A stretch of DNA of 64,000 nt, from NCBI GenBank assembly GCA_965178125.1, contig OZ237737.1:248001-312000 (forward strand). Reading direction: 5' to 3'. A model generated the notes under the pieces. The model was not told the DNA's origin. It saw nothing but the letters and a program-made list of their open reading frames with translations, and did not search any database. A program made the translations under genes and the position numbers. Each line of letters begins with the position of its first letter. The stretch's first letter is position 1. The DNA is from Bilabrum cf. latius (taxonomy: Eukaryota). Shown piece after piece: positions 2,824 through 41,653 of this stretch.

Positions 2824-5800
2824 TCACTGGCCAGCGCCACCGGACGCGGCGCCGGCGTCCTCGTCAGCTGCCCCCTTCTCCTTGGCGTCGGCCAGCCTCG
2901 AAATCTCCCTCGCGCGATCCAGCGCAGCCCTGGACTGCGGCTGCGCGCCCATCCCCACGAGCGTGGCAGCCAGTTCCTCCCTCCTCACCAGCACCTCCTC
3001 TTCCTTGACCAGGTCCTTCACCTTGACCTTGCCCTCCTCCAGCTCGCTGCTCCCGAAGAACACGAGGAACCGTCGGCCCTGCTCCAGCGCCTCTTGGAGG
3101 GCCTTGCCCAGCTTCAGGTTGGTCGCAAACTTGGTCTCCGCGCGGAACCCCTCCCTCCACAGCTGTGCGCACACCCGGAACCGCTCGGCCTCCAGCCCCT
3201 TGTCGATCGACGCCACCACGATCTCGGGGGTGTCGGAGGCGGCCGCCTCTGCAGCCATCATCTTCTGCTCCATGATGGTGAAGATCCGCTCGATCCCGAT
3301 GCTCACTCCCACGCAAGGCACCTGCTTGGCGTCGCTCCCCTGGAACATGCCCACCAGGTTGTCGTACCTGCCTCCCGCCGCGATGGAGCCCACGGCGCTG
3401 GGGGACGTCAGAACCGCCTCATAGATGACGCCCGTGTAGTAGTCTAGGCCCCTGGCCAGCGTCAGGTCAAAGGAAATGCGGTCCAGGCAGCCCATCGCGT
3501 CAAGATACTCGAACAGCAGGCCCAGCTCCTCGAGCGCCTTGCTTGCCCCGACGTGTGGCGCGAAGGTGTCGGCCGCAATCAGCTCCCGCAGCAGAGCCTT
3601 GGGCTCGCCGAAGCGGGGCTTTCCGTCCTTCATTATGATCGCCTCGATCCGGCCGGCCACCTTCGCAGGAAGGCCCTTCTCCACCGTCATCTCCTCCATG
3701 ACCGCGGACCAGGGCTCCTTGTCCAGCTTGTCGATCGCGCTGCAGATCGTGCGGAACTTGGCAGCAGGTACCCCGGCCATGTCCAGGATCCCGTCGAGCA
3801 GCCCACGGTGGTTGAGCTTGATCTTGAACCCCCCGATCGGGAGATCGCCCAGGATCTCGCAGGCGACTTTGAGCACGTCTGCGTCCGGCATCATGAGCGG
3901 GTACTCCCCGGCGACATCAAAGTCGCACTGGTAGAACTCCCTGTACCTGCCCTTCTGGATCTGGGGGTTGTCTCGCCTGTACACGCGCGCGATGTGATAC
4001 CGCTTGAGCCGGTTCACGCCGTGCTGGGCCAGGAACCGAGCGAACGGCACGGTCAGGTCGTACCGCAGTGACAGCAGCTCGCCACCCTGGTCCGCCAGAT
4101 CGTAGATCAGCTTGCCGCCCTCCTCGCCATACTTGCCCATGAGCGTGCTCCTGAGCTCGAAGACGGGCGTGTCGATCTCCACGGCCCCGTGGCGCTTGAA
4201 CACGTTCCGGATGATGGTGAAGCAGAGCTCTCTCGCAGCCATCTGCTCCGGCATGAAGTCACGTGCACCGCGAGCCACCTTGACCTTGCTGCCCGACTAG
4301 GCAAGCGACATGTACAGCTCCTCGCAGAATTGCCGCAGCGAAGGCCTCTCGATTGCATCGCCCCCGCCAGCGCCCGCCCCGCTCGCCGCCCCAGCCCCGC
4401 CCTGCGCTCTGGCCAGGCGCGCCAGTCGGTCAACAGACGTGTCCACAGCTGCGCTTGCCGCATCAGCACCCAGCACTGGCACCTTCAGGCCCTCCCCCTC
4501 CCCTTCTACTGCCGATCGGAAGCTGCCGTGCAGCAGCTCGCGCACTGCCCTTGTCCCTCGTCCCAGGCCAATGCTGGGGATAGCGGCTGCCCCTCCCGCG
4601 CCCGCACCACCGGCCAGCTTTGCTTGGGACTTCTCAAGAGCCTCCTTGTCCTTTTTCAGCTTCTTTGTCAGCTTCTTTTTCTCCTTGCCATCCTCCATGT
4701 CGGACAGCGCCGCCTCTGTATCCGCAATCTTTTTGGCCAGCCTCTCGTTGGAGGCCTTGACCTTGTCGGCCTTGCTGGCGAGCTTTGCCGCAGTGTCCTT
4801 GGCCTCCTGCTCCTCGGCGGCGCACAGCACGCCGTCGGACGCGACGAGCTCGGCTGCAAGCGCGGCGGCGCATGACGAAACGACCCCTTCCAGCGCGGCT
4901 GCCGCGATCTCGAGCTGCTGTAGGGACTCCTCTGCGGTTCCACCGCCAAGCACGCGGGCCCCCTCAGCCAGATCAGTTCCTTTTGACGATGCACCAGCGC
5001 TGGGCGCCGAAGCAGCAGACCCGCCGGTCGACACCGATGCGGCACGCACGGTGGAGGCGTCCCTCAGGGCGCTAGTGGCGTCAGTGGCCTGCGTGGCGAC
5101 CAGCAGGAGCTATGCCGCGTGGTACGGCCGCACGGACAGCGCGCTGCAGGGCTTGCGCCTCAGCTTGCCCTCGGCCTCCTTGCTCGCTGCAGCGGCTGCC
5201 GCTGACCTGGCAGCGGCTGGTGCCATGGATCCCGCCCCGTCCACTGCGGGAGCCGCAGCCGATTCCACGCGTGCAGACGCAAGGGCCGCGCGCAGACAGA
5301 CCGAGACCGGGCCGCTGATCTCGTGAGGGAACTGCACGGCAGATGGCAGCAAGCTGGAGGCAGCTGCACCAGCGCCATCGGCCGAGGGATCGGCGGATGC
5401 TGCACCTGCACCTGCTGCTGCTGCGGCCTTCCCCTTCTTTCCCTTAGCTGGAGCTGCCCTTGTCGAGGCGGAAAGGAGAAGCCTGAGCCTCTCCGCGGCT
5501 GCCTTTTGCCCGGGGTGCGGTCTCCTAACGTCGCTCCACTCGGTGTCCACAGAGGACAGCGCGTCGGCCTGAAGGGCCTCGGCGGTGAGGGCAGCGACGG
5601 CGTCGCTGTTGGCGGCCAGCTCCCGCGCGCGCCAGACCGAGTACAAGATGCGACCTGCGGCGGATCCACCACCTAGCCGAAGGATATCTAGCTCTGAGTC
5701 AGAGAAGCCAGGGCCGGCGAGTGGCGGCACGCCCTCGGCGCCGTCCCTCGCCACGGCAGCCAGCTAGAGGTCGCATGGCGTCCCCGTGGACCACCGCGGG

Positions 5801-6330
5801 GCTCTCGGGTTTTGAAGCAGAGCTGCAATCCATTCCAATGCTTCGATTCGCACTCCACTCTGGACCTGCGATCAAATTAAGCCGCGCTAGTACCAATTGA
5901 TTGGCACGCTGGAAAAGTTGCACGCGATATTGCGACGGTCGATCGCTTGAGCAGCGGCTCCATCGGGGTGCGCTGTGCTTTCCGGGTAGACAATCTTACA
6001 TGGGCAAGTTTCAGCAGGGAGCCTAGGGTAGCACTGCGTGCCTCGGGCAATCCTAGCTTTGTTCCCGCTGCATCACCAACCTTGAGTGCGCTCGATGCCG
6101 CAAAGGTGCCCTCAGGAGCAGTCACGCGGACCTGCAGAATTATAGACTGGTACACGGCATTCTCCCAGCGAATGCTACATTTACTTGCGCTTAGATTGGG
6201 AAGATATCATACAACAATGACGCACCTTTTCCATAAATCCTGCATCGAACTCCACTCGAGCTCCGTCGAGGACTATCTATAAAAGCTCTGAAAGCGCTTG
6301 CTTCTCTCCATTTAGTACTACCTTTGACAT
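2824..6330 (-). CDS. HARS: Cytosolic histidyl-tRNA synthetase with N-terminal histidine ammonia-lyase (HAL)-like domain; 3 exons (introns ~6225-6132 and ~5999-5866)
   Basis: HisRS core: GARDF, LRYDLTVPFAR, GRYREFYQCDFD, LARGLDYYTG, GGRYDNL, GIERIF. N-terminus MSKVVLNGEKQALSELL*IVLDGARVEFD, plus SGVRIE and RPHPGQ, resembles HAL. ORFs join in frame through TAG 6277, 5764, 5110 and 4297; ends TGA. Confidence 0.9.
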
Positions 6331-6481
6331 CACCAAGCAGGCAATAGTGAGCCAAAACCATAAATTGCGAAGGTGGCGGAGGCGCCGCGCATTTCATTGC
6401 GCGAGCGGAACCTTGTACCGGTCCGTTGGCGCGCGAAGTGCAAGTGGAGCCACGCACATCAACTGTTCGCAACTAGCCAAA

Positions 6482-7147
6482 ATGTACACCCGTGATGAGC
6501 TTGAAACTATGAAGCGCAAAGAAATACAAGCCATTGCCAAGCAGAATGGAGTGAAGGCAAACATGAAAACGGCACTCATCATCGATGCACTCGTGGATGC
6601 CTTCGCTGGTGCCGCTGAGGAGGGTGATGCGCCTTCAGAGCCAGCAGCCGCCCCAGCCACCAGTGAAGCAGAAACTGTGGAGCAGAATTCTAGTGATGCA
6701 GATGCAGATGCCACTGACGCAGAAGCAGCTATCGGGGCGGACGAGTCCGAGGCAGTCGCCGAAGAGTCCGCCGACGCTGCAGCATCGGATGCGGCTGGAA
6801 ACTCACCAAATTAGGAAGCCGACATTGAACAACCAGCGGATATCCCCTCTGAATCGCCGGCTTCGCCTGCCTCTGCCTCTGTGGGCTCCAAGCGGAGCAG
6901 GGAGGAAGCCGACCTGCCAGCTGAGGCCAGCGCACAGGCTAGCAGCGAGTCCGAGGCCGGAGCCGAGGCCGGAGCCGAACCAATGGAGGAGGAGGAAGAA
7001 GAAGAGGCAGAGCAGTAGATTAAGGAAGATGTAGAGGACGAGTATGCCAAGCAGCCCACGATGGATGCAGGCGAGGAGCCAAGCGATGCGGGCGCAGACG
7101 AGGGAGAAGAAGCTGCCAGTGCCAGTGGGGGAGAGAGTGCGCAAATG

Positions 7148-7194
<47 letters not shown>

Positions 7195-7482
7195 GGATGA
7201 GGGCGAGGACATTGAGCTGCAGGTTGCGATGGAGCCTGCCACCGATGACAGTGGCGAGGCCGTGGGTGAGGGTGAGGGGCCCACCTACGCTGCTGATGGC
7301 GCTGAGCAGCCTGAGGAGGATCAGGAGCAGGAGGTGGAGAAGGAAGCAGCAGCCCATGCGGACGCAACCGGCGAAGCACCCGCTGCTGCTGCTGCTCCGA
7401 TCGCCAGTGAGGCATCTGAGGCTCCCGTTTCCAAGGCAGCCCGCACCGAGGCCGTGGCCTCCCCGGCATAGGCCAGGGCTGT

Positions 7483-7515
<33 letters not shown>

Positions 7516-8200
7516 AGAGGAGGAGAAAGAAACGGCCAAGCCAGAGCCCAAGCGCACCAAGCCTGCCACCGTGCAGGCGACGCCCATGGACGGAACCAAG
7601 AGCTTCACCCAGCGAGGTTCCGCAAAGCCCCGAAACAGCGCGGCGCCGAGCACAGGCCGGGCCAGCGTGATCAGCAGCAGGCAGGCAGCGGCCTGTGCCA
7701 GGCTCATGGCAGGGAGCAGCGTCGCAGCCCGCAAGACCCTCAACACCGGCACCTCTAGCACCAGCGCCAGCGCCAACAAGAGGCGCGCGATGCACCACGG
7801 GCACGGGCATGGCTCGGCCTCCAGGGCTGGGGCCTCGTCCTCCATGGCCGGCGCCGCGCGCGGTTCCGCACGCAGCAGCCAGAAGGGCAAGGGCAAGGGC
7901 GTGCCAGGGTACAAGAAGTTCGACCTGGCAGCCAGCCTCAAGCGCAAGCCCACCTGGCAGATGAAGAAGGGCAAGATCAGGGCAGAGGCGGAGGCGGAGG
8001 CTGCCGCCGGGGCCATGGGGGCCGCAGGCGCGGAGCGTCCCAAGATTGGGCAGCTCAAGAGCCGGAAGCCGCTCGGGGCCCGAGCGAGCAACATGCCGTC
8101 TTCGGCCGGCGGCAAGGCTTCGGCAGCCTCTTCGTCTTCGTCCTCGTCCTCGTCCTCCGTGTCCAGCAGCGCGGCTGCGATGGCCAGCGCGCTGCTGTGA
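6482..8200 (+). CDS. NuSAP-like protein (SAP-like N-terminus, acidic middle, basic C-terminal microtubule-binding motif)
   Basis: MKRKEIQAIAKQNGVKANMK resembles the NuSAP N-terminus; KFDLAASLKRKPTWQMKKGKI resembles NuSAP FDLKASLSRPLNYEPHKGKL. One frame through TAG 6812, 7016 and 7469; ends TGA. Confidence 0.65.
7148..7200 (+). repeat. (GATGAC)n coding microsatellite, poly-Asp
   Basis: Tandem hexamer visible in the sequence. Confidence 0.9.
7484..7513 (+). repeat. (CAG)n poly-Gln tract in the NuSAP-like gene
   Basis: Tandem CAG run. Confidence 0.9.
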
Positions 8201-8620
8201 TCCGGCGTGCAGCATGATCAATGTAGCATGCGGCTAGGGAGTCGGATCAGACCATTTGGCTTTCAAAGCAAGCATGAAGTCGTCAAATCTCCGGTGAGTT
8301 GAAAATCCATGCTTTGAATGATGTCTTTCAGATAAAATTTTAGCTACTGCACTACATTCTTGTCGACACGATATGTACTGAGTTTAGACTCGTAGTCAAC
8401 CCACGCTCGCTGATACTTGGTTTGGGAAGTGCGCGACTTGCAGTTGCACTTGTGAGAGCTGCGATCGGATCCGCAGCGCGTCAAGACAGTCCATTGCATT
8501 TTCGAAGCTTGCAGCAGTAAGAAGCGTTACAATTTGCCTTTGTATTCATATGAATCGCGTTAGATGTATTCAAATTGCGCTTTGGCAAGCCTTCCCTTCC
8601 TTCGCAGATCTCAATTGCGT

Positions 8621-10493
8621 ATGCAGAATATGCAAACGGTCTCTGGACTTGTGCTAGCCAGTCTTGCGTCCACATCGTCGGCTGTAAACACCACTATCGT
8701 TGATTTTACCGGGCCGTAGAATGTAGCAAAGTCTGCTCCGGCGGAATGTGCACCCGGGGTGCCTGCCTATCAGACCCTCATCATGAACACCGACTTCGAG
8801 CCAGAAGATGTCGGCCTTAGCATGGCTGGGATCCCAGCGTTCACGACCCAAGCAGGAGGTTGCGGGTATTCTGGCGTTGATTCTGCAGGAGGCAGCGATT
8901 GGCTGCATGGTCAGGACTACGGGATCCACCCGGCTGCCTTCGGTGAAGGCACGGCTCGTGTGCCATTCGAGCAAAAGAATGGTGGCATCCCGTAGAATCT
9001 AACGGGGGGACTTCCAGCACATGTAAAGCAGCTCAATGAGGCTATCGAAAAGACCCTCCCAATGGATTTCGATGGCATCATCTCCCTCGACTACGAGGGG
9101 TGGCAGCCAGTAGTGAGCCAACGGCCCCTCGAGACCTCCTGTCGCCCGATAGCACAATACACCGAATGGCCGCCTGAATACTCGATATCATTCGCACAAG
9201 AGTCGTACCCCGGGCAGAGGTTGTCATAAGCCTCGTTGGCCGGTCTATTGCTGGCAGCACCTGCTCGCTCCTGCACCCTCCCCACACCTATCCCAACCGC
9301 AGTGGGACAACTTTCTGTTCGGGGGCTACAAGAACTTCTCCATGCAGCTCGTCCTGGAGCAGCACCCGGAGTGGTCCTCCAACATGACCCACGTGGAGGA
9401 GGTGGCCGCCCAGCAGTTCGAGTCGGCGGGCAAGGAATTCTATCTGACCACGATCGACACCATCAAGAAGGCTCGGCCCAAAGCAAAGGTCGCCTTCTAT
9501 TCCACGCCGTTTAAGGGATGGCACAGCTATTTCGATCCCGTGAGGCTGCTTCCGGGCTAACGCTGCCATCAGCTCCGTTTCACACTGTCGCAGTCAAAGC
9601 ACTCCTTCGGCAGATTTTGCCTCATTTTCCCTTCCTTCTTTGCTTCCGAGTCGCAGGAGTACACCGCTAGTCAGGAGGCCCACAACAACGCGCTGCAGTG
9701 GCTCTGGAACGCCGTTGACGCGCTCTCCCCCGAGCTCTACCTTAACACCAGGCCACCGAGCAAGTTCACTCCCAACAACATCTCCTTTGCGCGGGCCATG
9801 ATGGGCGAGTCCCAGAGACTTGTGGACCAGACCTTCAACCAAACGGGCAAGAAGATCGGCATCGTGCCGTTCAGCTGGATGCGGGCTGGAGGGCACGCGT
9901 GGCTGCCCATTGAGGACCTGGAGGCAGACTTCCTCGTACCATTCGAGTACCCGGCGTGCTGGGGCGTCCTCGTGTGGGGCGACCCTGCCGTGGGCGACGT
10001 GGGTATGCCCGCCCTGCAGTCATACTACCAGAAGACCTTCAGGCCATGGGCGCTCAAGACTATGAAGTAGAGGTGTGATTGCCAGGCCACCAAGTGCAGC
10101 AACCACGGTCGCTGCGTGTTCAATGACACCGCGTGTGCCTGCGCTGAGGGGTGGACGGGAGACGATTGCTCCAAAAAGGCTAGCGCCCTTGGTGAGGTGA
10201 ACCCCGCCCCAGCCCTACGGGGCGCTTCTCAGCCGGCGGGTCCTGCCACGTACCAGGCGCTGGCCGATACCTACGCTCCACGGGAACCCCCAGCAGGCTC
10301 TGTGACATGCCCGGACGGCGTTGCCTACTGTCCCGCCGGAAATACCTGCGGACAGCTCACCACTGGCATGTGGGCTTGCTGCCCGCTACCAGATGCGGTG
10401 AACTGCGGGACGCACACCGGGTGCTGCCCCAAAGGCACCCTATGCGACAACGAAAACAATGTGTGCTACGACCCCGATGATGCGGCCGCTTGA
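8621..10493 (+). CDS. Secreted GH56 hyaluronidase-like glycoside hydrolase with EGF-like and granulin domains; introns ~9113-9302 and ~9540-9656
   Basis: Signal-peptide-like start; NGGIP*N, catalytic-type GIISLDYEGWQP, NALQWLWNAVDALSPELY; CSNHGRC...CACAEGWTGDDC (EGF); CPAGNTC...CCPLPDAVNC...CCPKGTLC (granulin). TAG 8717, 8993, 10068; ends TGA. Confidence 0.8.
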
Positions 10494-10709
10494 GTGTGCC
10501 TTGAGCCGCTTGACCATAGAGTGACGGTGGCAACAGGCGGCGAGGTAGTGTAACATGGTGATGATAAACTTGCAGCGTTCTTGTATTTGCAATCACGCGC
10601 GCGGATCCACCTGGACTGTTCTATGCCGGAGGGCATCGCTGCCGTCCTACGCATTTCAGTGTGTCACTACGTAGCCGCTACATTAACCCCTTGAGCCCCT
10701 ACAACCTCA

Positions 10710-20995: not shown

Positions 20996-23543
20996 TCAAG
21001 CGGCGTCGAACCGAAGCACCTGCGTCGAACTGCACGGACCCAGCGCCAGCGCCGCACTCGTCACGCTGATAACCTTGTTGTCCTGCGACGGAACTAGGCA
21101 CATGCCAGGGCATTCTTCGCTACGGATCAAGCCAGAAACCGGGTCATGATGGAAGGACACGGACCGCTGGGGCGGCCCCCTGAGGCCATCCTCCTGCTCA
21201 ATGGACGATTCGCTCGCAGTGGCATCGACGTGCGAGCACGAGCCGAGCCACAAGGTGTTGCCCTCGATGCACATACCCCGCCCGCCGAACCCGTCCGGAT
21301 ACCAGCTCTCGAGCTTGGTGCAGGCGGCCGGGAATGCACCGCTCTGCAGTGGGGCGGACACCTGCTCCCCTGCGGAACTCACGCCGCGGCCCCACGCCCA
21401 CCGACTACCACGGCCGTCGCATCCCCCCAAAACCGGAACTGCATGGCGCCTCAGGCCGTCGAGCAACGTCAGGCACTTGCCCGACTCGCGGTCCACGAGC
21501 TGCTGCCCCCCCTGGGGCTGTTCCCCATCAGCGGCGGGCAGCCTCCACCGCTCTGCTTGGGTGTGCTTGGGCGCGGCGCACTGGCTCTCGTTCACGCGCG
21601 AGTTCTAAATGGAGGACTTGAAGGTGGCCAGAGCGGACCTCATGTTGTCGCAGAGGGGCTGGTTGTCCTTGCACACGTTGTTCGTCTCGGTCGGGTCGGA
21701 GTGCAGGTCAAAGAGGCACCCGTCGGGGCACGGGTCCTTGACCTTGCCCCACGGCGGCAGGAACTCGTCACACTGTCCCTTCTGGGGGTGCTGCACGAGC
21801 TTCCAGTACGTGGACCCGTCCGCGGACTGGTTCACGAGGGCGTACTGCCCGCTCTGCGCGAAGCCGAGCACCTGCCCGCGCCCGGAGCCGTCCCCGCTCG
21901 ACCCCTCGAGCAGAGGCAGGATGGATTGGCCGTCCTGGGCCCATTCCGGGTGCGGGTGCTTCACGCCTGTGGCGTCGAGGAATGTGGGGAGCCAGTCCAC
22001 GGTGGAGGCCACCCTGTTTGTGTGCCTGTTCTCGGTGATCTGGGCGGGCCAGTGGATCAGGGCTGGCACGTTGATGCCGCCCTGGAAGATGGAAGCTTTG
22101 CACTGGCGATTCCCGTTCGAGGCGGCCAGCTGCCCGCTCGGGCGCGTGTGCCCCGAGGTGTGCGGCCCATTATCGGGGCTCCACGCCATGACAGTGTCGT
22201 TGAAGACGCCCCTCTGCTTGAGGCCATTTACCAGCGTGCCAAGCGCCGCGTCCATCTGCGTGATGGTGCCCAGGTAGTCCCCTGCTGGGTCCCCGTTGGG
22301 GTCCGTGTAGGCGTGGTAGAACTCGGGGAGGGAGGGGTGCGGGACGTGGTTGGTGTGGATGTGGAAAAACACGAAGAAGGGCTTGCTGGGGTCCGTTCTG
22401 TTGTCCAGGAACTGCATGAGCTGGTCCACCATAAAGGCCGTGTCATCGCCTGTGATCTTAGAGGTGAGGTTCTGGACGCAGTCCCTGGGGCATCGGGCGG
22501 GGTCTAGGCACTCGGGGCGGCTGGATGCACCCGGTGCGTAGCTCCAGTAGTTTGTGCACTCGAGCGACTTGCGGGTCCAGTTGCCGCCCCCGACGATGCA
22601 GCCGTCCCCCTCCTGGGCCCAGGCAGGGTTGCAGCCACAGTTTGTGGTGGAAGAGGCAGCGCTTGCCTCGGTGGCCAGCCAGAAGTCAAAGCCCATCATG
22701 CCCGGGTGCATGGCAGGCCACTTTTTGTCCGCGTACGTCTTGTGGGGATCCCCATTCTTGTTCCAGAAGTTGCCTAGCTGCGAAACAGAGTGTGCCAGGT
22801 CGAGGCAGATGACAACGCGATCCACGCACGAAATGCAGTGGAGCGGCCCAGTTCTAAAAGGGCATCAATATTTGGCTTACGTGGTGCTTGCCGATGAATG
22901 CTGTATCGTATCCTGCCTGCTTCGCAGCCTAGGCGGCGGTGAATGTCGTTGGCGGGTAGGGAAGATCGTCATAGCAGGACCAGGCTGGCTCTTGCCCGCA
23001 GCCCTCCGCGTTATCAATACACTCTCGCTCTGGCGTCCGGCCGCTGCGATGCAAGGAGAGACCTGACGAATCGCCCGGCCATCATGCGATTGGATCGAAC
23101 TTGAAGTTGGTGCCTGCAGAAGATCGATCCGTGCCATCCTTACCTCAATAAGGAACTTCTGGTCGGAGAGCATACAGCAGAGCCAGAATACCAAGAATCA
23201 AATCGAATCGAATGGCTGCTTGATGCGAGGGCATCCAAATTAGGAGTCTTGGGCGAGTTTAGCTGCCAGCGGCGGCCTCCAGCGCCGGGCTGCAGCGCTC
23301 TAGCAGCATTATAGCCGACATCACCTTGGCCCATATCGTCAGCGCTGCGTATATGAAGTGTATAGGTTATCAAGCTACCCGCTGGTGACGATGATTTGGC
23401 ACTGGCGGGGTTATCCAACCCGACAGCTCTTACAGCATAAACAGCCAGTTCGTTGGCGCGCCAGTCCCGTGGGAACCGCACAGCAATGCTCCGACTATAC
23501 ACAGACCAATCCACTGGGCTGTTGGGGGGCATAGAACCCGCAT
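20996..23543 (-). CDS. Secreted arylsulfatase (formylglycine-dependent) with C-terminal ricin B-like lectin region; 4 exons
   Basis: PTNWLFMLADDMG, TPNLDALA, CSPTR (CxPxR), AA*AAKQAGYDTAFIGKHHLG, PDNGP, GGINVPALIHWP, LFDLHSDPTE. TAG 22929 and 21605; ends TGA. Confidence 0.85.
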
Positions 23544-23738: not shown

Positions 23739-26316
23739 TCAATCCTCCCCGAAGTCTCCGAACCCTCCAAACCCTCCATCCATGCCATCGCCACCCATAC
23801 CGCCCATCCCGCTGCCGCCACCGAACCCAAAGTGATCGTCGTTGGTCCCGTCTGCGCCATCCATGTCGTCCGCATCGTCCGCGTCCTCGGCCACCTCCAC
23901 GTCAAAGTACCTGCCCATGAGGGTCGCTGCCCGGTGCTGGATGTCCTCGTCGGTGCCCGCCGTCTGCAGGTCCTCGATGGTCTGCCCGCCGCCCGCCTCC
24001 TCGATGAACTGCACCACCTTGTTCCCTCCGCGGGTGATCCCGCGATCCTCGGCCTCCTTGCCCACGCGCAGCATGTTCTCCAGCCCCTCGAGGGTGATGG
24101 TCACCATCCGGCGGTCGTGAGCGTTCAGCAGCCCGCACATGGGGCCGACTGCGCCGAGGTCGACCAGCTGCATGATCTGGCTCTGGTTGCCGCCGGCCGT
24201 CACGTTGCAGATGCACCACAGCGCCTCCCGCTGCAGGTCGTGCTCTGCAGACCGGCAGATCTCGATCAGCGGCTGGAAGATATTGGCCTCGAACAGCCTG
24301 TCAATCTGCGCGACGCTGCCCGCCGCGATGTTGCTGATGGTCCAGCACGTCTCCTTCACGATGGACCTCTTGGTGTCGCCCAGCTTCTCTAGCAGGATGG
24401 GCAGCGCGTTCTGGCCCAGCACCATGTCCGTCTGCGCGTCGTCGCCGGTGACGATGTTGCCGATGGTGCGCAGCGCGGGGGTGACGATGCCCGACTTTGG
24501 GCTCATCATGAGCTCCACCAGGCGGGTCACTGCGCCAGACTCCACCACGCGCTGGACGCGTTCGTTCTCGCCGTCGCTGACGTACGAGAAGGCCCAGCAC
24601 GCGTCGGTGACGACTTCGTTGTCATCGCTCTTGATCAGCTCGGCCAGCAGCGGGATGCCGTCTGCCACCGCGTGGAACGGAGGCATGGGCTTGCCACTGC
24701 GGTGGACGGCGGGAAGGGGGGGAAGACAAGGATGGAGAAATTGAGGAATCGGTGGAAGTGATGATGAGGGCATGGAAAGGGGGAAGGCGTCAATGCCTTG
24801 GGTCGTTCGATCTCCTCTATTGATCTTATCCTACCCTTAAAACTCACCGCATGAGGTTTGACAGGGCCCAGGTGGCGTTCCTGAGCACCGCCGGGGAGAT
24901 GCTCCTGTTGCGGAAGACGTCGAGGAGCGGCCTCATGACTCCCTCGCTGAGCAGCATGTCCCTGCACTCGGGGGAGTCGCCTGCAATGTTCCCCAGCGCC
25001 CACACGCACTGCTCCTGCACGTCGGGATACTTGCTCAAGAGGCCCGCCATGAAGGCCGTCGTGGCCCCGGCGGCGATGACGGCCTGCGTGTCCTGGGCAG
25101 ACCCGGAGGCCACGTTGGTGAGCACCCAAGCCGACTCAAACTGGAGCCTGGGGTTACTCCCATCCCGCAAGAACGACGCCAAAATGTCCAGCACGCCCAG
25201 CTGCGTGACTGCCCGAATCGGAGGGTTGCGCTCTGCGAGGGCGAGACAGCAGCATGTGCACTCTGACTGGCAAAATATGGGAGCACTGGAACGAGGCTTC
25301 CGTTCGATAGCCGCAGGTTGGCGGAAATGAAATGTGGTATTACAAACAAAACCTGTGGATGAGGCCAGCAGCAAGAACTGCGAGGCCAGGAGTAATCTCT
25401 CACCCACTGCAACCAGTTTCCGGAGCATGAGTGCCCCTTCAAGGTTCAAGCTGGGATCGCCACGCACGCGAACCATCTCTGCATACTTGCGCATGTTGTT
25501 GGGCTGCAGTGAGTGTAGCAAGAAAGGGATGAATGTCCAAACGTAAGGGCAAACAACATGCCCGGCCCCTCTCCAGCTACCACAACACAGCAGTGGGAAT
25601 GATAGGGCCATCCCACCGAGGAAAGGAACAGCTTTAAGAACACTTGAGCTTATAATCGAAACATTGGGACGACAGACGCAGTATCTCACGTCTGCGACAA
25701 CATCGCTGTTCGGTATTCTCGCGCCAGGCACCGTTGGCAAATTGCTTCCTGCAACACTAGCTGGAGCATCAGATCCCATGCCCATTCCCCCGTCTGCTCC
25801 TGCACCTGTGCCAGAGGCGGCCGGCCGCCGGTTCAGCTGCGAACGAGCGAAACATGGGAGATGAAAGCAGAACAACTGGATCGCAAACAGGCGAAGACTT
25901 GCCAAAGCATCCCGAGGTCCAGTTGTTTCGCAGGGCTATCAAGTTTTGTTCTTTGAAGAAACAAAGATACGAGGGTCCATAGCGTACATACCACGAGATT
26001 TGAGATTCAATGCTCGCTCAACACTCGGTTCCCGGCTTTCAAATCGCCATGTTCGGGCAACTAATGCAAGTGCACACCAGAAAAACCACGGTCATATAGA
26101 TAATATCAATACAAGCAATCTTCTGGTAGACCTAAGACGCAAGCAAATCCCGAGTTTCCTCACCATTCGTCGCTTCGCCAACCGAGCCTCTTGCTTCTGC
26201 TTGCGAACTTGAATCGTGGTTTCTGTCCTGCTTCGCCTAGCCTCTTCGATAGAGATAGTCTTCTTATAGTCCTTCTTTCTCTGCTCCAACACGGCAGCGC
26301 TTGCATCACCTTCCAT
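23739..26316 (-). CDS. Importin alpha (karyopherin alpha), multi-exon
   Basis: IBB domain ([27 protein letters not shown]) and ARM repeats ([58 protein letters not shown]). Ends TGA. Confidence 0.92.
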
Positions 26317-26484: not shown

Positions 26485-29400
26485 ATGTCAAAGTTTTTAG
26501 TTTTACTTGGATATTTCAGTGCGCTTGCAGCGATAGTGTCCGGATCAGAGCGTGGAGGGTGCTCGTCGTTTGCATCTCTTCATGGCAAGGAGAGCTAGGC
26601 CACCATGCGAGCCGCCGGGATATATGTCAGCTCGTTTCCCCCCGCTGCTGGACTTCGGAAGAAGTACATTGCTCGGGATGCTACTGACGTCCTCCAAGAT
26701 CCCGCTAGCTCCGAGGCTGGCGGGGATAGCTTCGCAGGCCACCCCAAGCAACGATTCGCTAGGGCTCTTGCAGCCCTGCGGTACGGCCTAGCCATGACTG
26801 CGGTGCACGCGTCCCCCGATGAATAGAATGTGAGCATTGTCTGCGTGCCCTGATGCGATTTCTTGGTTTCGAAGCCACATTCAACGTACTTCGCCGAGCC
26901 CAACCATCCTCCTTCTTCCGAGCACGCAGACGGCAAGTTTCCACCTTGTGCAGAAGCTTGAAGGCACTGTTGACCAGGCTCACGCTCAATGCGATGATGC
27001 TATCGAACATGGAAGCGCCGACACCTCATCCGGCGGCACTCTAGAGCTGGGCTCGCAGTCGGCCGCTTTCCCTGAGCAGCCCGGCGTCAAAGACGGCGCC
27101 GCATCCACGGTCATGTACGAACAGATCAGCTCCGTGTCCAAGGCACGACTCTCGGTCCCATCGGCACAGCACGGAGCAATGGAAGCCTCGGGAGCGAGCC
27201 ACAACCAGCCCTGCATCTCGGTGCAATTCGAGGGCGAGATTGGGGCGGGCTCGTCGGGCAGGGCAGTCGCTTGCTTCGAGAGCTCCGGCCTGCGTGACGC
27301 CGCCGTGTGCGCCCTCCGCACCAACGCCGTGGCACGCCGGAGGGACCTCTCCAGCGTGGACGGGGAACACGCCTCGTGGCTCAGGGGCATAGCGGAGGGC
27401 GCACACCACGGGGAGCCCTGCAGCCCCAAGGGGACCCCCTACCTGCCGCTGCCCGCCGACAGGGCGCGGGAGGAGGACGCTGCCGCGGCGGAGCTGGGCC
27501 CCGCGGGCGACATTCTTTCCATGGAGGAAGATAACGAGAACGAGGGGGAGGGGGAGGCCCCCGGGTTCGTGGAGCATGGCATGAGCAGGGAGGAGGCGGC
27601 CATCGCCAGGGTGAGGAGGCTGCTCGACATGGCCACGGCACCATCGGAGGAGGAGGACGGGGAGGAGGCGGGCGATGAGGAGATGGCGGTGCCTCCATTG
27701 GAGCAGGGCGACGGTCAGGGCGTGGAGACCGAGACCGAGGGCGAGGGCGAGGGCAACAAGTACGTCACGCCCACGATTGTCGGTGACGAAGAGCCTTCCG
27801 CCGCAGACCGAGAGAGTGACAACGAGGAGGAGAAGGAGGAGGAAGAGGAGGACCGCAGTAGTGCTATCGTGTCAACTTTGACGAGGAGCCACACGGTGTC
27901 GACGGTGCCTGCCGCTGATGATGCGAGCCATGAGCACGAGGCCACCCCTGTCCCCGGCGCCGACCCCGGTCCAGACGACGATTTCACGGACGAGGACAGG
28001 GAACAGTTGGAGGAGGAGCAGCGCGCCATCAAGGCATTCAAGGAGAGGGTGGCAAAGGGCAAGGTGTGGGAGGGCGAGGACGTGCAGGGTGTGGAGGAGG
28101 AGGAGGAGGAGGAGACAGGTGAAGGGGTGGAGCAGCCGGTGGATGCCCAAGTCGTAGCAGCCGATGAGGCGGTCGAAGAAGAAGACGAGGAGGATGTCGA
28201 GCAGCCTTCGAACGAGCCCATCGTTGTGGACAGCGCGCAGATGCATGAGGAGGAAGAGGAAGAGCGCCAGGCCGTTGATGAGGAAGAATCAGAAGAAGAG
28301 GAGGAAGAGGAAGCTGCGGCCCAAGCGCCCATCAGCAGGGAGCCCAGCCGAGCTGTTGACGAGTACGAGCGCGTGCGTGTGGTGGACAGCGTGGACGACG
28401 TGGAGCGGGTCGTGCCCTATGGCACACTGCAGCGCAAGAGCAGCAGCAGCCAACAGCAGGAGCAGAGGGCCGACTCAGTCCCGCGCATCAAGCCATCAAG
28501 GCCACCCGCCCCGAGCACCCCGCCAGTCGCTAGGCGAGGCAACACCCAGGGTGGAGATGGTGATTCCAGCACCGTAGACAAGGACACCTTCACAGTGCGC
28601 CCAGGAGACAGCGAGCGAGACATCGTTCTCAAGGCGCACCACCATGCAGTGCAACAGGCCAGGGAACACCACGAGAAGGCGCACGCAGATGCGGTCGCAA
28701 AGGTGATGGGAATCGGTGGGGAAGGCGAGAGCTAGGGAACAAAGCAAGGTCGCGAAGAAGAGCCAGAGCAGCAGGACGAGGAGGAGAGCAAGCCCGTTCC
28801 GCACTACGTGGATGCGGAGGTGCACCCCGACCTGGATCTGGAGGGGTTCGAGACGATCGTGCAGGCGCAGGTGATCGAGCCCTCTGCCTCTCCTGTGCCC
28901 ATGCCATCAGAGGCTGCGGCCCCAGAAGAGGAGGAGACAGAAGAGGAGGAGGAAGAGGAGGAATCGGAGCAAGGCAAGGCTGAGGACAAGGACACGGGAG
29001 TGGAATAGGAAGAAGACCAGAACGACAAAGGCGAGGAAAAGCCAAAGGAGGAGAGCAAAGGCAAGGAGAACACGGAGAAGCCGCTGCCCGGCCCCAAGCC
29101 CTCCCCCACTCCCAAGCCCTCCCCCGAGCCAAGCTCCGCGTTTCCGTCCGTGTCCCCCAGACCAGGGGAGGACTCCATCGTGCCCAGCACGGCAGCCACA
29201 CCATCTGTCGAGCCAGGCGCAGCGTCCCCGGCTCCTCGGGAGACGGCCCCCAAGACTGGCCTCGGCTCGATTCCCCAGGGTGACAAGGGGGAGGAGGAGC
29301 CAGTGTCACCAGAGGAACACGCCAAAAGGGTGGCGGCGAGGCGGGCGGCCATCAGGGCGGCCCTGGGCGGTTCGTCCGAGGAACAAGAGGATGCCGCTGC

Positions 29401-30094
29401 CGCTGGGGGGGATTCGCAGGCCGAGGGCGGCGCCGCGGCTGTTAGGTTCCGCTCGTCGCGCGGGCTTCGGGGGTCCGGCTAGGCGTTCAGGGGACGGTCC
29501 GTGTCGCACGAGAAGTCGCAGCAGGTGATGCAGGCCAATGCGGCAGGGGAGCCGCTCGGGGTGGATGGGGAGGGTGCAGATGCCGATGGCGCACAGCAGG
29601 AGGAGGACGATGCGATTGCTGCGCACGTGGATGCGGGCGTGCTAGGTTAGGAGGAGGACGATGCGATTGCTGCGCACGTGGATGCGGGCGTGCTAGGTTA
29701 GGAGGAGGACGATGCGATTGCTGCGCACGTGGATGCGGGTGTGCTAGGTTAGGAGGAGGACGATGCGATTGCTGCGCACGTGGATGCGGGCGTGCTTGGC
29801 ACACAGGTAGGCAGCGCCCGTGGGGGGGGAGTTGCAAGGGCGGGAGCAGGAGCAGGAGCAGGGGAGGTGGGTGCAGAGCTGGCTGGAAGAGGGGAGGAGT
29901 CCGATGGGCACGCCTCTACGAAGAATGCAGGTGGTATTGAGCAGCAGCATGCAGCGAGTTCCATGGAGGAAGCGAGCAGCGAGAGCGGCAAGGGAGGCGA
30001 GAAGAAGGAGAAGGACGGAGGCTCGCACTGGGATCTGCTCTCGAGGTTCTCGACCCCTGGGCTGTTAGCTGGTTGGGGCGGGGCGTTTGCTTAA
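26485..30094 (+). CDS. Large secreted acidic low-complexity protein; intron ~26830-26929
   Basis: Signal-peptide-like MSKFLVLLGYFSALAAIVSG; Glu-rich. The frame continues through 8 TAGs to TAA 30092-30094. Confidence 0.65.
29598..29796 (+). repeat. 51-bp coding tandem repeat, ~3.9 copies (QEEDDAIAAHVDAGVLG)
   Basis: Units start at 29598, 29649, 29700 and 29751. Confidence 0.95.
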
Positions 30095-30257: not shown

Positions 30258-32145
30258 ATGCTCAGGCAAGCACAAAGGTTGGCATCTGCTAGATTTGCAG
30301 TCAGGTCACGCTCTCTAGCGATGCGCGCCATGAGCACCGCGGTAAGTTCTTGCTTCTGCCAGGACTCTGGTCCTTCGCATCACTGGGTTGTCTGCTGCGT
30401 GTCAGTGCATTTGTCGACAGTGTATTGACATGTTCTTTGCTTGAAGCTTGGGATAGTGTATGCATATGCGATTTTGCCGTAGATTTCCGACAGAAATTGT
30501 TCAAGAAGCGACTTGTTTGCTGACAGGTGGCGCAAGTGCAGTTGACGTTCAGCGTATCTTGCTCAACCCGGGAATTCTGAAGAGTCGAACGCGCACAAGC
30601 GGATTTCAATCGATCATGGTATGAATTTTCATTTGCATACTGCTCGCGCAGCCGATCAAGTACCCGAATTTGATCAACGGGGAGTACGTGCCGTCCAAGG
30701 CTACCGAGTGGATCCCGGTGCACGACCCCGCGACGAACGAGGTTGTAGGCGAGGTGCCCCAGAGCACCCAGGAGGAAATGGATGCCGCAACGAGCGCCGC
30801 AGTGACTGCACAAAAGGACTGGGCCGCTACTCCCGTGCAGCGGCGCCAGCGCGTGATGTTCAAGTACCAGGAGCTCATCCAGAGGCACACGGACGAGGTG
30901 GCCGCGCTCATCACAAAGGAGCAGGGCAAGACCACGGCCGATGCTAAGGGAGACGTCTTCCGCGGTCTCGAGGTCGTGGAGCACGCTTGCTCCGCCGCCA
31001 CGCTCTCGATGGGCGAGACGCTGGGCAACCTGGCTGACGGCACCGACACGTACTCGTACAGGCGACCCCTGGGCGTGACCGCCGGCATCGCCCCCTTCAA
31101 TTTCCCCGCCATGATCCCGCTGTGGATGTTCCCGCTGTCCGCGGCGCTGGGCAACGCGGTGGTGATGAAGCCCTCGGAGCGCGTCCCCGGCGCACTCATG
31201 CGGCTGAGCGAGCTGGCCCTCGAGGCTGGCCTCCCCGCCGGCGTGCTCAACATCATCCACGGGGCGCACGACACGGTCAACTTCATCTGCGACGACCCGC
31301 GCATCAAGGCGGTGCAGTTCGTGGGCGGCGATGCAGCGGGCAGGCACATCTACGAGAGGTGCGCAGCCGGTGGCAAGAAGGCCCAGTGCAACATGGCAGC
31401 CAAGAACCACGGGATCATCATGCCCGACGCTGACAAGGAGCAGGTGCTGAACGCGCTCGTGGGCTCTGCATTCGGAGCCGCCGGACAGAGGTGCATGGCG
31501 CTCAGCTTCAACATCTTCGTGGGAGAGGCCAAGGAGTGGATCCCCGAGCTGGCGAACCGCGCGGCCGCGCTCAAGGTGTCTGCCGGGCACCTGCCCGACA
31601 CGGACGTGGGTCCGATGATCAGCCCCTCTGCGCTGTCCAGGGCCAGGGACCTGATCCACAGGGGGGTGGAGGCGGGCGGGAGGCTGCTCGTGGATGGCCG
31701 GGACGTGCATGTGGCGGATTACCCTAACGGCAACTTCCTGGCGCCCACCATTCTGACTGGGCTGACCCCCTCCAATCCAGCGTACAAGGAAGAGGTGTTC
31801 GGGCCTGTGATGGGCGTGGGAACCGCGGACTCGCTGGATGAGGCCATCTCGTGGATCAACGAGAACCCCTACGGGAACGGGTGCTGCATCTTTACGCAGA
31901 ACGGCGCGGCGGCCCGCAAGTTCCAGCACGAGATCGAGGTGGGGCAGGTAGGCATCAACGTGCCCATCCCCGTGCCGCTTCCCTTCTTCTCCTTCACGGG
32001 GAACAAGAAGTCCTTCCTGGGAGACAACAACTTCTACGGCAAGGCCGGCGCCCACTTCTTGACGTAGCAGCAGACCGTGACGTCCAACTGGAAGTACACC
32101 CAGACCAGCCAGAAGGCCGCCATGGCGATGCCTACCCTCGGGTGA
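30258..32145 (+). CDS. ALDH6A1: Methylmalonate-semialdehyde dehydrogenase, mitochondrial; intron ~30342-30651
   Basis: Arg/Ala-rich presequence; [45 protein letters not shown]-terminus [11 protein letters not shown]...MPTLG through TAG 32065 to TGA. Confidence 0.95.
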
Positions 32146-33703: not shown

Positions 33704-34663
33704 TCACTCTCTCAGGAGGCACCCTGCGGTTTCCGCGAGGACCTTGTGCCTGCGCTCGGCTTGCTGCACAGCGGAGCGAAGGTCTGCCGCCGGGACCAGG
33801 TCTCGCATCCGCAGCGCGTACAGTAGTTGTTCCCTGGCGTTGAACGCAATGTTGTTGGCCAGGAACATGGGCAGTCCCATGTCGCGGCCCGGCCGGTGCT
33901 TTCTCTAGAACGTGCCGAGCGGCGCTCGGACGATACCAAACGTTTCTTTGCCCCAGTCTCGGCACTCCAGCGCAGACTTTTCGAGGGCGAATAAGTCCTG
34001 TTCTGAGACTTCTATCGCAAAGAAGTTCAGGAGGCACTTGCTGTCGGGCCTGCGCATGACACATAGCTAGTGTTTCGGCTACGGAACGATGAGCCCATCC
34101 GGAGCTCCGATCTCCTCCTTGAGCTCCCTTGCCAAAGCTTCCGTCACTGTCTCGCCCGGATCTACACCGCCGCCAGGGAATCCGATCCTACCGTCGTCAC
34201 GCACTATCATGAGCGCTACATTAGGACACGGATGGCCGTCGATCTTGCAGCCAGACGTACTGCAATATATCATTGCATGAACTGCATGACACCAACCGTC
34301 TTTTCGCACGTCTGCAGCCATCACTTCCTCCTAGGATGCTTTGATATATGTTTCGGTTTCCTTGACCGAAAATGGTGGGAGAGCACTTGACAGCGGTGTC
34401 CCCTTTGGATGCAGCACCTCACGAACATGGCTCCGCTCGATCGGCCGCTCACTAATGTTCTTCCCAAGCCATACTGGTGTCCTGTCCTTTATTTTATTTA
34501 CCTGTCCTGCATCGCATCGGGTGCTTGACCCGGCGAATGTAACACATGTTGCGGCAGCAAACCCACTTGCGGCAACTACACTCGTTCGCAACGAAGCGGC
34601 ACCCCATGCTTGTCTTGCCAGACGATATCTGCTCTATAAAATTCTGCGGACACGCAAACGCAT
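33704..34663 (-). CDS. NUDIX hydrolase, NUDT16 (U8 snoRNA-decapping/IDPase)-like
   Basis: HAVHAMIY, RDDGRIGFPGGGVDPGETVTEALARELKEEIG (Nudix box), DWGKETFGIVRAPL, GLPMFLANN...AREQLL. Five in-frame TAGs; ends TGA. Confidence 0.8.
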
Positions 34664-34826
34664 CTTGATGAAGAGATCAGGCGGGGGTTTGTTTGATGGA
34701 GACATCCACGCCGTCGTTCTCGCCAGGCTGGATTCCCGGAACTGGAACTTCGGGCCAGCGCACACTGGCAGCCGTAGCTACCGACATGAGCTAATCAAGA
34801 GCCCATCCCCGCGCAAAGCCTCTCGT

Positions 34827-35122
34827 TCACGAACTTGTCTCTGCAACCAGGAGCCTTTCCAGCGATACGCGATCCAATTCGTTGACACCTGCAGCCAGCC
34901 GGGGCGATCCCCCTGCGGTCACCTCGATCCACCACTCGCGCTCGCTCCCCAGAAGCAGCTGCTCTCGCAGGGTATCTGCGCCCAGCGGCAACTTCCTGTC
35001 GTCCCACAGCGGACTGTCGTCCGCCAAACCGGAACCAGCGGCACGGATCGCCTCCATGTCCGGTGGAAGCCCAACCCAAGTACAGCCACCTTCCCCACGC
35101 CCATGCCCACGCCCACGCCCAC

Positions 35123-35201
<79 letters not shown>

Positions 35202-35364
35202 CCTGCCACCAGGTCCGCGATCAATACTCGGTGCCGATATCTCGTCCATAGCAGGGCGCGTGCCCCCGATCCCCGCGAGCCTAAGGGACAGAAGCACCGC
35301 TGCTGCCCCCCGCACAACGCAGGGTGGGCGAAACCGCTCTGGCGATTGCGCGGAAGCACCGCCC

Positions 35365-35403
<39 letters not shown>

Positions 35404-36824
35404 CTCGCGAGCTACCTACCTTTCACGACCATACTCCCTCCTATGTCTCGATCGCTGGTGCTGGTGTCCCCAATTGTTCCCTCGATCCATGGGCGGCACA
35501 GGCGCTTGCACTCAGCGACCAACCCGGTCCTCTCCGCGCATGCCGCCAGCACCGGTTGCAACCGCCTGTCCTTTCCCCACAATCGGAGCCACTCAAGGCG
35601 CGGGGTCAGAAGCGGGTCGGAGAGGGATGGGGGAGTGCCGCTCGCGACTGAATCCGAGGCGCTCCGAGCCGAACCTGAAGCGCCGCGAGCAGACGCCTCG
35701 GCACGCGCACCCCCAACAAGCCGACTTGATTTGCATTCCGAGTCGGCAGTGCTGTCTTTAGCGCGGGCCAACAGACGGTCCACGGCCTCTGCAGCAGCTG
35801 CGTCTGCCTCGCACAGGTGCTCCAGCAGGATAGGGGGCGGAGGCGGTGCTTTCCAAGCCCGTGCTGGTGACACTCTGGATTCGCAGGTTGCTTCAGATGG
35901 CAGTATGCCCGAGTCCGCGTGCTCGAGGTTGTGGGCGAGCAGGCAGCATGCGAGCAGAATGACGCGGGAGCTTGCCGCGGGCGGGGCCTCGGCGGTTGCT
36001 CGAGCACTTGCTCGCCATGCCTCGCACGCGAGAGCGAGCATGTCAACGAGAGCCGTGCCGCCGCTGGAGCTGGAGCTGGAGCGCGCCCTCTCTGTCCCTG
36101 CGGCGGGAACTGCGGACGCGGCATCACTAGGCGGGCTGCCGAGCGCGGCGGCCAAGCCGACCCGTCCATCATCACAGTCGCCATCACAGTCTCTGCCACC
36201 GACAGAGCCACCGCTGCCACGCGGTGGTTCAAGTGAACCCACCCTCTCCGAGTCGGAGTGAGCAGGGGCACTACCAGGTACTCGCGGCAACCTTAAGCCT
36301 TCTAAAATACCTGGAGACATTGCTTTTCCTCGAAGAAGTAAGCTCGCAAGTCCTAGCGCAATGTCTTGGGCGGCTTGTGTAGACCTCCAGTCTGACTCTA
36401 TCCCGGCTGCTCTTGCTACCTAAAGCATCACAATCTCTCCCTGCATGGATATATCCAGACATTTCTTACGTATTTCGTTGAAACAAGCGAGCCTAAGCGA
36501 CTCCCAATGTGTCGTGTCGTACAGGTCTGTCGGCGGCAATTGAAGCAGCGACGCTGTATACACCTCAAGTGGCTTTGTTGCGGACTAGAATGCCTAAATT
36601 GCTGCATCAATTGCACGCTCTGATGCGTCAAAGTCCGGCAGTGCCCCCCAAGATCCATTTATTCCGCCAAACTCAATTGCAACACCAGTCTCCACTTGCA
36701 TTCCACCGTCGGCACTCCATAGAACCTCATCTTCAGAGCCATTGTCTCCCCATCCTGCAAGAATACTTTCAAATCCTTCAAACACTACGCGTGGAAGCCA
36801 CCTGTCTCGACTATTGGAAGACAT
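34827..36824 (-). CDS. Hypothetical protein with poly-Ala and (Gly-His)n tract
   Basis: Three ORFs in one frame joined only by TAGs (36594, 36585, 36420, 35412); ends TGA 34827. Confidence 0.55.
35100..35202. repeat. (CCCATG)n / (CCCACG)n hexamer microsatellite
   Basis: Visible tandem hexamer; encodes HG/RG repeats on the minus strand. Confidence 0.9.
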
Positions 36825-40800: not shown

Positions 40801-41318
40801 ACCTTCGTGGAAGAGGCCAGCAGGGCATACACGAAGAGCGGAATTGTCGACGAATACAGCCCGTAGATGGGAGGCAGGCCCGCGAGCACGGCGTATGCCA
40901 TGGACTGAGGAATGAGCAGCACGCCGACCGAGAGTCCGGCCATGACGTCGCTGAACGCCGTCTGGCCAGTGTACTTGGGAAGCCACTGCACGATCGGTAT
41001 CTGGTCCAGAGACATCTGACACCAATTTCTTATGAAAGACCAAGCCTCTGCCACGGTCACGTCGTCCGGGACACTCTCCTCAAACACTTTCGAATGCGCC
41101 ACAACCCGCCGCGTCCGCCTGCCCTGCAGCAATTTGCCCGACGGGTCATCCGGGTCGATGCTGCCGTCACTGTGATATCCATCGTTTCCTGGCCTGCTAG
41201 GTGCCGTGCTGCCATCAATGGTGCGGTGCATCGGTGCTTCTCGAGAATCGTGACGCGCCGGTACAGTAGCCGGGGACCCAGCAGCGAGCCGCCTGCTGCT
41301 GTCACCAGAGCCACTCAT
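37815..41318 (-). CDS. SLC26/SulP sulfate/anion transporter with STAS domain
   Basis: DVMAGLSVGVLLIPQSMAYAVLAGLPPIYGLY, GSFTRTAVN, LRVDGELNFGN, INTIDTS. TAG 40224 and 39126; ends TGA. Confidence 0.92.
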
Positions 41319-41653
41319 GTGAAAGGTTGTAGCAACTTATCACCGACAGCAGGTGATTCTGCAATTGATGCTTCTTCGCAGCACCACAAGATTCGATTGC
41401 AAGATCAGCTGTTGGTGTTGTTCGAACTGGAAGCCACCCCAGCAGAAAAAGGCAGTGCCTGAGCAAGGTTTACAAAACAACCGTACGAAGAAGCACGCGA
41501 AGACCTCGAAAGCGCTCTGTAGTATATTCAGCTCAGTGCACTGTACTTCGATGTAGTTTCCGTCGATGGGCGGCGCCGCGCACCGTTGCCCGGAACCGCA
41601 CAACGACTTGGGCTAACCTCTCGAACGCACACGGGCCACGCGTGGTCAACTCA

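Follow-up and report, generated by a model that had tools for sequence, protein, structure and literature searches.

Changes of the nuclear genetic code are rare, and those in which UAG has been reassigned with UAA kept as a stop are rarer still, with a handful of lineages listed in PMC11687900. According to that source, UAG alone is read as glutamine in the fornicate Iotanema spirale and in three ciliates, Protocruzia tuzeti, Hartmannula sinica and Trochilia petrani, UAG alone is reported to encode leucine or serine in other lineages, and the common change in which both UAA and UAG (UAR) encode glutamine (NCBI table 6) occurs in many ciliates as well as in ulvophycean green algae, Hexamita, Streblomastix and Amoeboaphelidium protococcarum (PMC11687900). 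Here we describe a stretch of 64,000 nucleotides from Bilabrum cf. latius (assembly GCA_965178125.1, contig OZ237737.1, positions 248,001 to 312,000 of the forward strand), referred to below in its whole length as the window. It contains a gene for a hyaluronidase-type enzyme of glycoside hydrolase family 56 (GH56) in which the codon TAG stands at the conserved glutamine of the GG[ILV]PQ motif. Codon usage and protein alignments across the window indicate that in this organism UAG very probably stands for glutamine across the nuclear genes and that translation ends mostly at UGA and otherwise at UAA, which corresponds to NCBI table 15.

The code of this genome resembles that of the described table-15 lineages, as UAG is a sense codon at conserved glutamines, UAA has not been reassigned and UAG is a minority glutamine codon. 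The share of UAG among the glutamine codons is 12% here versus 18.5% and 31.8% in two ciliates, and the main stop is TGA (15 of 18 gene ends) versus the UAA preferred by phyllopharyngean ciliates (PMC11687900). The window genome differs from the table-15 lineages in its 62% G+C, in its short spliceosomal introns of the GT-AG type and in a contig of 64 kb or more that carries many genes. The presence of a mitochondrial-type methylmalonate-semialdehyde dehydrogenase (MMSDH) is a further difference from table-15 lineages such as Iotanema, which is an anaerobe. The reading of UAG as glutamine in this genome is a further case of a known, rare code change.

TAG at the conserved glutamine of the GH56 gene

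On the plus strand, the codons AAT GGT GGC ATC CCG TAG occupy positions 8978-8995, in a frame that translates as ...FEQKNGGIP*NLTGGLPAHVKQLNEAIEKTLPMDFDGIISLDYEGWQP... (the asterisk being TAG). An earlier reading of this DNA from its letters alone (the sequence-only reading) had located the motif at 8981-9001, assigned its TAG directly to the glutamine of hyaluronidases and noted a catalytic DxE downstream in the same frame. The codons are as it described and the TAG lies within that range, but the motif begins three bases earlier, with the AAT, and 8981 is the first base of the GGT. The catalytic motif does follow in the frame of the TAG as D-Y-E (Table 1), and it aligns to DFE in the bee and wasp enzymes and to DWE in human HYAL1; among the GH56 homologues, the D is present in 27 of 27 and the E, the proton donor in this family, in 26 of 27.

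Two comparisons bear on the residue at this TAG. All three solved GH56 chains that were matched at E<=1 have glutamine there (wasp 2atm, NGGVPQ; bee 1fcq, NGGVPQ; human HYAL1 2pe4, GGLPQN), although these matches are weak (E 0.013-0.28, exon 1 being short) and the query had Q written at the TAG. Because this query carried Q at the very position in question, a separate retrieval was made with a motif-free profile, built from the relative P0001 together with exon 2 and the GH56 portion of exon 3, none of which covers the GG[ILV]PQ region. The profile, in which the EGF and granulin columns of P0001 had been retained, was searched against 1.84 billion protein representatives and the best 150 matches were sorted: about 110 matched EGF or granulin columns only, one was P0001, ten were GH56 fragments without the N-terminal region and were excluded (P0159, P0167, P0169, P0178, P0190, P0192, P0225, P0253, P0255 and P0260), and 29 GH56 proteins were used and aligned to the spliced gene model with X at each TAG. 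In the column of TAG 8993-8995, 26 of these 29 representatives have Q, one, in a poorly aligned row, has R, and two have no residue. Among the 339 well-occupied GH56 columns, this is the only one in which Q reaches at least 85%. The column is thus predominantly glutamine, as the sequence-only reading had anticipated, and the assignment made there is supported by 26 of 27 residues, by the three solved structures and by the in-frame DxE. Within the general reading of UAG as glutamine, in which we place high confidence, TAG 8993-8995 would be an ordinary glutamine codon at the conserved GG[ILV]PQ glutamine.

The TAG belongs to a three-exon gene of 521 codons on the plus strand (8621-10493), with an ATG at 8621 when TAG is read through. 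Each of the three exons matches the Pfam family Glyco_hydro_56 (PF01630), with 26.1, 39.0 and 32.4 bits for exons 1, 2 and 3 (cut-off 23.2), and the matches are colinear on profile positions 66-111, 123-181 and 201-327 of 335, positions 1-65 being unmatched. Against solved structures, exon 3 matches HYAL1 2pe4 (E 2.5e-4) and granulins (E 1e-10). P0001 (60% identity) crosses both exon joins without gaps, in ...DYEGWQPVWDKFLFGG... and ...WHSYESPEAGPAQRAH..., and the join of exons 1 and 2 at WQPV/WDNF agrees with WQPVWDKF of P0001. The identity to the 29 representatives is 22-48%. The gene keeps 39 of the 43 columns that are conserved in the family at 85% or more, or 40 of 43 when TAG is taken as Q. 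The four exceptions are the TAG column itself and three substitutions (W by M, G by A and D by N), whereas the catalytic strand retains its D, E, W and P. The product is predicted to be an intact, spliced and probably secreted glycosaminoglycan hydrolase.

Two further TAGs stand in frame in this gene (Table 1). For the first of the three, at 8717-8719, only 11 of the 29 homologues have a residue in the column (A5 G4 S1 T1), which is uninformative. Opposite the third, at 10068-10070, P0001 has E and P0002 has Q, and the position is variable in the 29 representatives (E4 G4 D4 K3 Q3 T3 and others). The standard code would thus give the gene three premature stops, and the third-position G+C of exon 1 (0.57) is below that of most genes of the window; both observations would fit a pseudogene, in which the TAG of the motif would be a nonsense mutation of a glutamine codon (CAG to TAG). 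However, all three in-frame stops are TAG, the 521 codons are free of TGA, TAA and frameshifts, the family-conserved columns are largely kept, the catalytic D and E included, and the splice sites are intact and canonical. The GH56 site alone cannot tell a sense codon from a nonsense mutation; this is settled by the window-wide counts, which show the same pattern in essential genes (91 in-frame TAG versus no TAA or TGA), and by the MMSDH column described below. We regard the probability of a pseudogene as negligible, and UAG as glutamine as the reading that applies to this gene. Two antisense open reading frames (ORFs) across the TAG site, at 8573-9187 and 8914-9462 on the minus strand, gave no Pfam family match.

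The encoded enzyme resembles the GH56 enzymes of animals and venoms (HYAL1 2pe4, PH-20 9jub, bee 1fcq, wasp 2atm) in its GH56 domain, the GG[ILV]PQ motif and the D-x-E motif, and it resembles HYAL1 in having an EGF-like module after the catalytic domain. Unlike the animal, venom and choanoflagellate GH56 enzymes, it has an additional C-terminal granulin module, giving the domain order GH56, EGF-like, granulin; granulin is also present in the two close relatives found, P0001 and P0002. To our knowledge, animal hyaluronidases carry the EGF-like part without granulin. A word-based search with the C-terminal half of the protein returned two relatives only. GH56 'GAG hydrolases' (GAG, glycosaminoglycan) are expressed by some choanoflagellates (10.1101/211789), and since GH56 is therefore already known outside animals, the enzyme itself is not the novelty, and it is the granulin module that is unusual.

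Table 1. Positions, within the window, of the features of the GH56 gene and of two other coding regions considered in the text.
Feature	Position	Strand	Remarks
GH56 exon 1 and donor	8621..9112	+	164 codons; ATG, signal-peptide-like N-terminus, GGIPQ motif, catalytic DYE; donor GTGAGC from 9113
In-frame TAG no. 1 of GH56 gene	8717..8719	+	Codon 33, between signal-peptide-like start and GH56 domain
G-G-I-P-[TAG]	8981..8995	+	GGT GGC ATC CCG TAG; TAG 8993-8995, codon 125
Catalytic D-Y-E	9089..9097	+	GAC TAC GAG; GAC 9089-9091, GAG 9095-9097; same frame as TAG 8993-8995
Intron 1 of GH56 gene	9113..9302	+	190 nt, GTGAGC...CAG
GH56 exon 2	9303..9539	+	79 codons; CAG acceptor before; no gaps versus P0001
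Intron 2 of GH56 gene	9540..9656	+	117 nt, GTGAGG...CAG; in-frame TAA inside, 9558-9560
GH56 exon 3	9657..10493	+	278 codons and TGA 10491-10493; C-terminal half of GH56 domain
In-frame TAG no. 3 of GH56 gene	10068..10070	+	TMK-[TAG]-RC, just upstream of EGF-like module
EGF-like module, exon 3	about 10080-10163	+	Pfam EGF, 24.8 bits
Granulin module, exon 3	about 10344-10466	+	Pfam Granulin, 36.5 bits
ORF of 2579 codons	10710..18449	-	23 in-frame TAG, no TAA or TGA inside; no Pfam family
Single in-frame TAG of MMSDH gene	32065..32067	+	ORF 30625-32145, codon 481

Stop codons across the window and the class of code

The counts of stop codons cover 19 coding frames of the window, and the codon usage covers 23 coding stretches with 16,921 codons. 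In frame, there are 91 TAG, no TAA and no TGA; the first off frame holds 118 TAG, 29 TAA and 236 TGA, and the second 108, 39 and 297, respectively. As TAG is about as common in frame as off frame, whereas TAA and TGA are absent in frame, TAG is not selected against and the other two codons are excluded. UAG is a sense codon in this genome. By codon usage, TAG occurs 95 times beside 554 CAG and 136 CAA, that is, in 95 of 785 glutamine-type codons (12%), and 21 of the 23 coding stretches have at least one in-frame TAG. Under the standard code the longest ORF has 813 amino acids; once TAG is read through, the longest ones reach 2579, 1634, 1457, 1173, 1086 and 1015 amino acids, whereas treating TAA as sense leaves the ORF lengths almost unchanged. 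Pfam families were matched by 10 of the 22 long ORFs scanned, and nine of these ten contain in-frame TAG. Among the ten are a histidyl-tRNA synthetase, a sulfate permease, a pyridoxal-phosphate (PLP) enzyme of the Cys/Met family, a Nudt16-like protein, an Ap4A phosphorylase and a helicase; an aldehyde dehydrogenase, a sulfatase, a proteasome subunit and importin-alpha were identified in further ORFs. Genes that match their families strongly and contain TAG in frame are those for the histidyl-tRNA synthetase, the sulfate permease, the Cys/Met enzyme, the helicase, the Nudt16-like protein and the aldehyde dehydrogenase.

The use of TAG differs among the genes. Its share of the glutamine codons is low in conserved genes of high third-position G+C (OSBP 0/11, MMSDH 1/21, SulP 2/51, sulfatase 1/34) and higher in genes of lower third-position G+C (Nudt16-like 6/17, ORF 34827-36824 4/12, the 2579-codon ORF 23/134, GH56 3/26).

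The remaining two codons behave as terminators. In the TGA-bounded ORFs (19 ORFs), TAA is never interior; where it occurs, it either precedes the coding core or stands at the end. Of 18 complete 3' ends, 15 are TGA, which is the main stop, and three are TAA. The TAA-ended genes are the Cys/Met enzyme, in which the TAA stands 15 residues past the end of the alignment to solved homologues, the 2579-codon ORF, which ends in a tandem stop on the minus strand (TAA 10710-10712, then TGA 10707-10709), and an ORF of 1086 codons. Because TAA and TGA remain stops, the code is NCBI table 15, the UAG-only variant. The code of NCBI table 6 shares UAG as glutamine with this genome, but it was rejected, with 91 interior TAG versus no TAA and with three genes closed by TAA at plausible C-termini. 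The retention of TAA as a stop, a point absent from the sequence-only reading, makes this a case of the rarer UAG-only variant and not of the common UAR code.

The same counts bear on whether the TAGs could have arisen by C-to-T damage, sequencing error or mutation resembling repeat-induced point mutation, or could be reversed by RNA editing. A single C-to-T change converts CAG to TAG, and U-to-C editing that restored CAG would likewise yield glutamine. However, such changes would also turn CAA into TAA and CGA into TGA, and neither TAA nor TGA occurs in frame; with 136 CAA versus 554 CAG, the 95 TAG should be accompanied by about 23 TAA, and none is seen. We know of no nuclear U-to-C editing that is specific to UAG.

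Protein databases also argue for inherited codons. The 2579-codon ORF is present in the protein database as four fragments (P0272, P0273, P0275 and P0276). P0272, P0273 and P0276 end exactly one codon ahead of a TAG, P0275 does likewise at 2171, and P0273 also begins directly after a TAG. Fragments bounded in this way by TAGs indicate that gene calling with the standard code breaks such genes. A fragment from a relative, P0274 (68% identity, on a contig of 1310 nt), covers codons 364-654 of the same ORF, which is the exact interval between the TAGs of the window at codons 363 and 655, and it has His opposite TAG 592. This coincidence suggests that the source of P0274 has stops at the same places and may share the UAG code, and a relative's fragment that starts and stops at the TAG positions of the window argues against damage. 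To damage or editing as an explanation we assign next to no probability; inherited UAG glutamine codons remain the preferred reading. For the 2579-codon ORF itself, a TAG-free fragment gave weak leads to RPGRIP1-type C2 domains (Atlas, first match 0.87).

Amino-acid identity, decoding and contrary points

A second anchor for the identity of the amino acid is provided by the MMSDH gene, which has a single in-frame TAG (Table 1). With X at this codon, the TAG faces the q of FYTQ in the solved mitochondrial enzyme, ...FYGKQGIQFYTQLKTITSQWK..., and the homology extends for 25 residues beyond it to the common C-terminus, which is followed by TGA. In the 120 best homologues, the column contains Q 109, K 4, S 2, Y 2, D 2 and E 1. 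Only 6 of the 503 MMSDH columns have Q in at least 85%; at five of these the window has CAG or CAA, and at the sixth it has TAG. The joint chance that two random codons would fall on such columns in both proteins is (1/339) x (6/503), or about 3.5e-5, and when the three TAG columns of good occupancy are taken together, Q has a log10 likelihood of -1.07 and the runner-up, K, one of -5.22. On this evidence, UAG is most probably decoded as glutamine.

The decoding could be accomplished by a tRNA-Gln with the anticodon CUA, which would read UAG and, by base-pairing rules, would not read UAA. Such a tRNA would let UAG change its meaning alone, with UAA untouched, and an eRF1 that no longer recognised UAG efficiently would lessen the competition at this codon. 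Both elements are carried over here from other variant codes (PMC11687900).

Several points weigh against the conclusion that UAG encodes glutamine throughout this genome. The assignment leans on the two strongly conserved columns in GH56 and MMSDH, and all other alignable TAGs are in variable or unaligned positions: the residues that face TAG are E/R and V/R for the Cys/Met enzyme, H/L/S for the sulfate permease and E/R/S for the Nudt16-like protein, and the TAG of the histidyl-tRNA synthetase falls outside the structure alignment. The alignments of these four proteins, made with X at TAG, speak neither for nor against glutamine. In addition, P0003, which at 87% identity is the closest relative of the MMSDH, carries Glu at the TAG column. 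No tRNA gene of any kind and no Rfam match were found in the 64-kb window, so the decoding tRNA is one that we infer only; the eRF1 gene is not in the window either. The ORFs were defined such that TAG cannot end them, and UAG termination is shown to be absent only in the few genes with C-termini aligned to homologues. Finally, it is from the ends of the proteins that we infer the relatives' fragments to stop at TAG.

Two alternatives draw on these points. One is that UAG is a sense codon for another amino acid, for example Glu, Lys, Leu or Ser, for which other lineages offer precedents; this would accord with the Glu of P0003 and with the E, R, K, H and S found in homologues at most of the alignable, variable TAG positions. 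In contrast, both TAGs in strongly conserved columns stand in glutamine columns (26/27 and 109/120), which has the low joint chance given above, and the likelihood of Q exceeds that of the next residue by more than four log10 units; we consider the probability of another amino acid to be very slim. The other alternative is that UAG is ambiguous, being glutamine inside genes and a context-dependent stop elsewhere, as in ciliates and trypanosomatids without a dedicated stop. The ORF definitions would be blind to genes that truly end at TAG, and the scope of the counts is 64 kb. However, at the aligned C-termini of MMSDH, the Cys/Met enzyme, the Nudt16-like protein and GH56 (granulin end), the genes terminate where expected with TGA or TAA, each of the 18 complete 3' ends counted is likewise TGA or TAA, and the number of in-frame TAGs (91) is near that off frame (108-118), as for an unconstrained sense codon. 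An ambiguous UAG has, in our estimate, a slim probability, and UAG as a dedicated glutamine codon is the reading carried forward below.

Lineage, implications and neighbouring genes

A single-gene tree of MMSDH placed the window sequence and P0003 in a clade with oomycetes and unnamed sequences, which is weak evidence and serves as a hint only. We tentatively propose, as a possibility that we rate somewhat below even, that the window represents a eukaryotic lineage from which UAG as glutamine has yet to be described, that is G+C-rich, intron-containing and unlike ciliates, that perhaps belongs to the heterotrophic stramenopiles or to a neighbouring group, and that may have acquired a UAG-only glutamine code with dominant TGA independently. 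The change would then be at the level of a clade with at least one relative (68% identity), the proteins of which are broken in databases. No report of UAG as glutamine in a stramenopile or another G+C-rich non-ciliate was found in the literature, in a search that left most subscription journals outside.

A case with 62% G+C and termination at TGA bears on the question of how stop codons are captured: UAG may have been a rare terminator before its takeover by a tRNA with the anticodon CUA. In practical terms, annotation, orthology assignment and proteomics would be wrong for this organism and its relatives until table 15 is applied, and the GG[ILV]PQ site could serve as a clean single-codon diagnostic of UAG reassignment.

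Other genes of the window are of interest in their own right. A sulfatase/N-sulphoglucosamine-sulphohydrolase-like gene (20996-22864, minus strand) and a SulP/STAS sulfate permease gene (37815-41336, minus strand) share the 64-kb window with the GH56 gene. By co-occurrence only, the three give a hint of the uptake or breakdown of sulfated glycosaminoglycans.

The histidyl-tRNA synthetase (2824-5871, minus strand) closely resembles its human cytoplasmic counterpart (E 1e-141). At the N-terminus it is extended by about 500 residues of Ala-rich, low-complexity sequence, in which two of the three TAGs of the gene are located. Coding microsatellites or repeats were found in four ORFs (34827-36824 and 41654-43990 on the minus strand, 6221-8200 and 26834-30094 on the plus strand), the types being (GH)n, poly-Asp, poly-Gln, (DQ)n(GQ)n, poly-Ser and a four-fold QEEDDAIAAHVDAGVLG. 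Two genes with Armadillo repeats are present on the minus strand: an importin-alpha gene with introns and an Arm_3 C-terminus (23739-25938), and a gene with one Arm match and four in-frame TAGs (62016-63368). The Nudt16-like Nudix gene (33704-34918, minus strand) encodes a protein resembling the U8 snoRNA-decapping enzyme (E 4.5e-37), with Xenopus X29 and human NUDT16 as its closest structures; the Nudt16 family is mostly known from animals.

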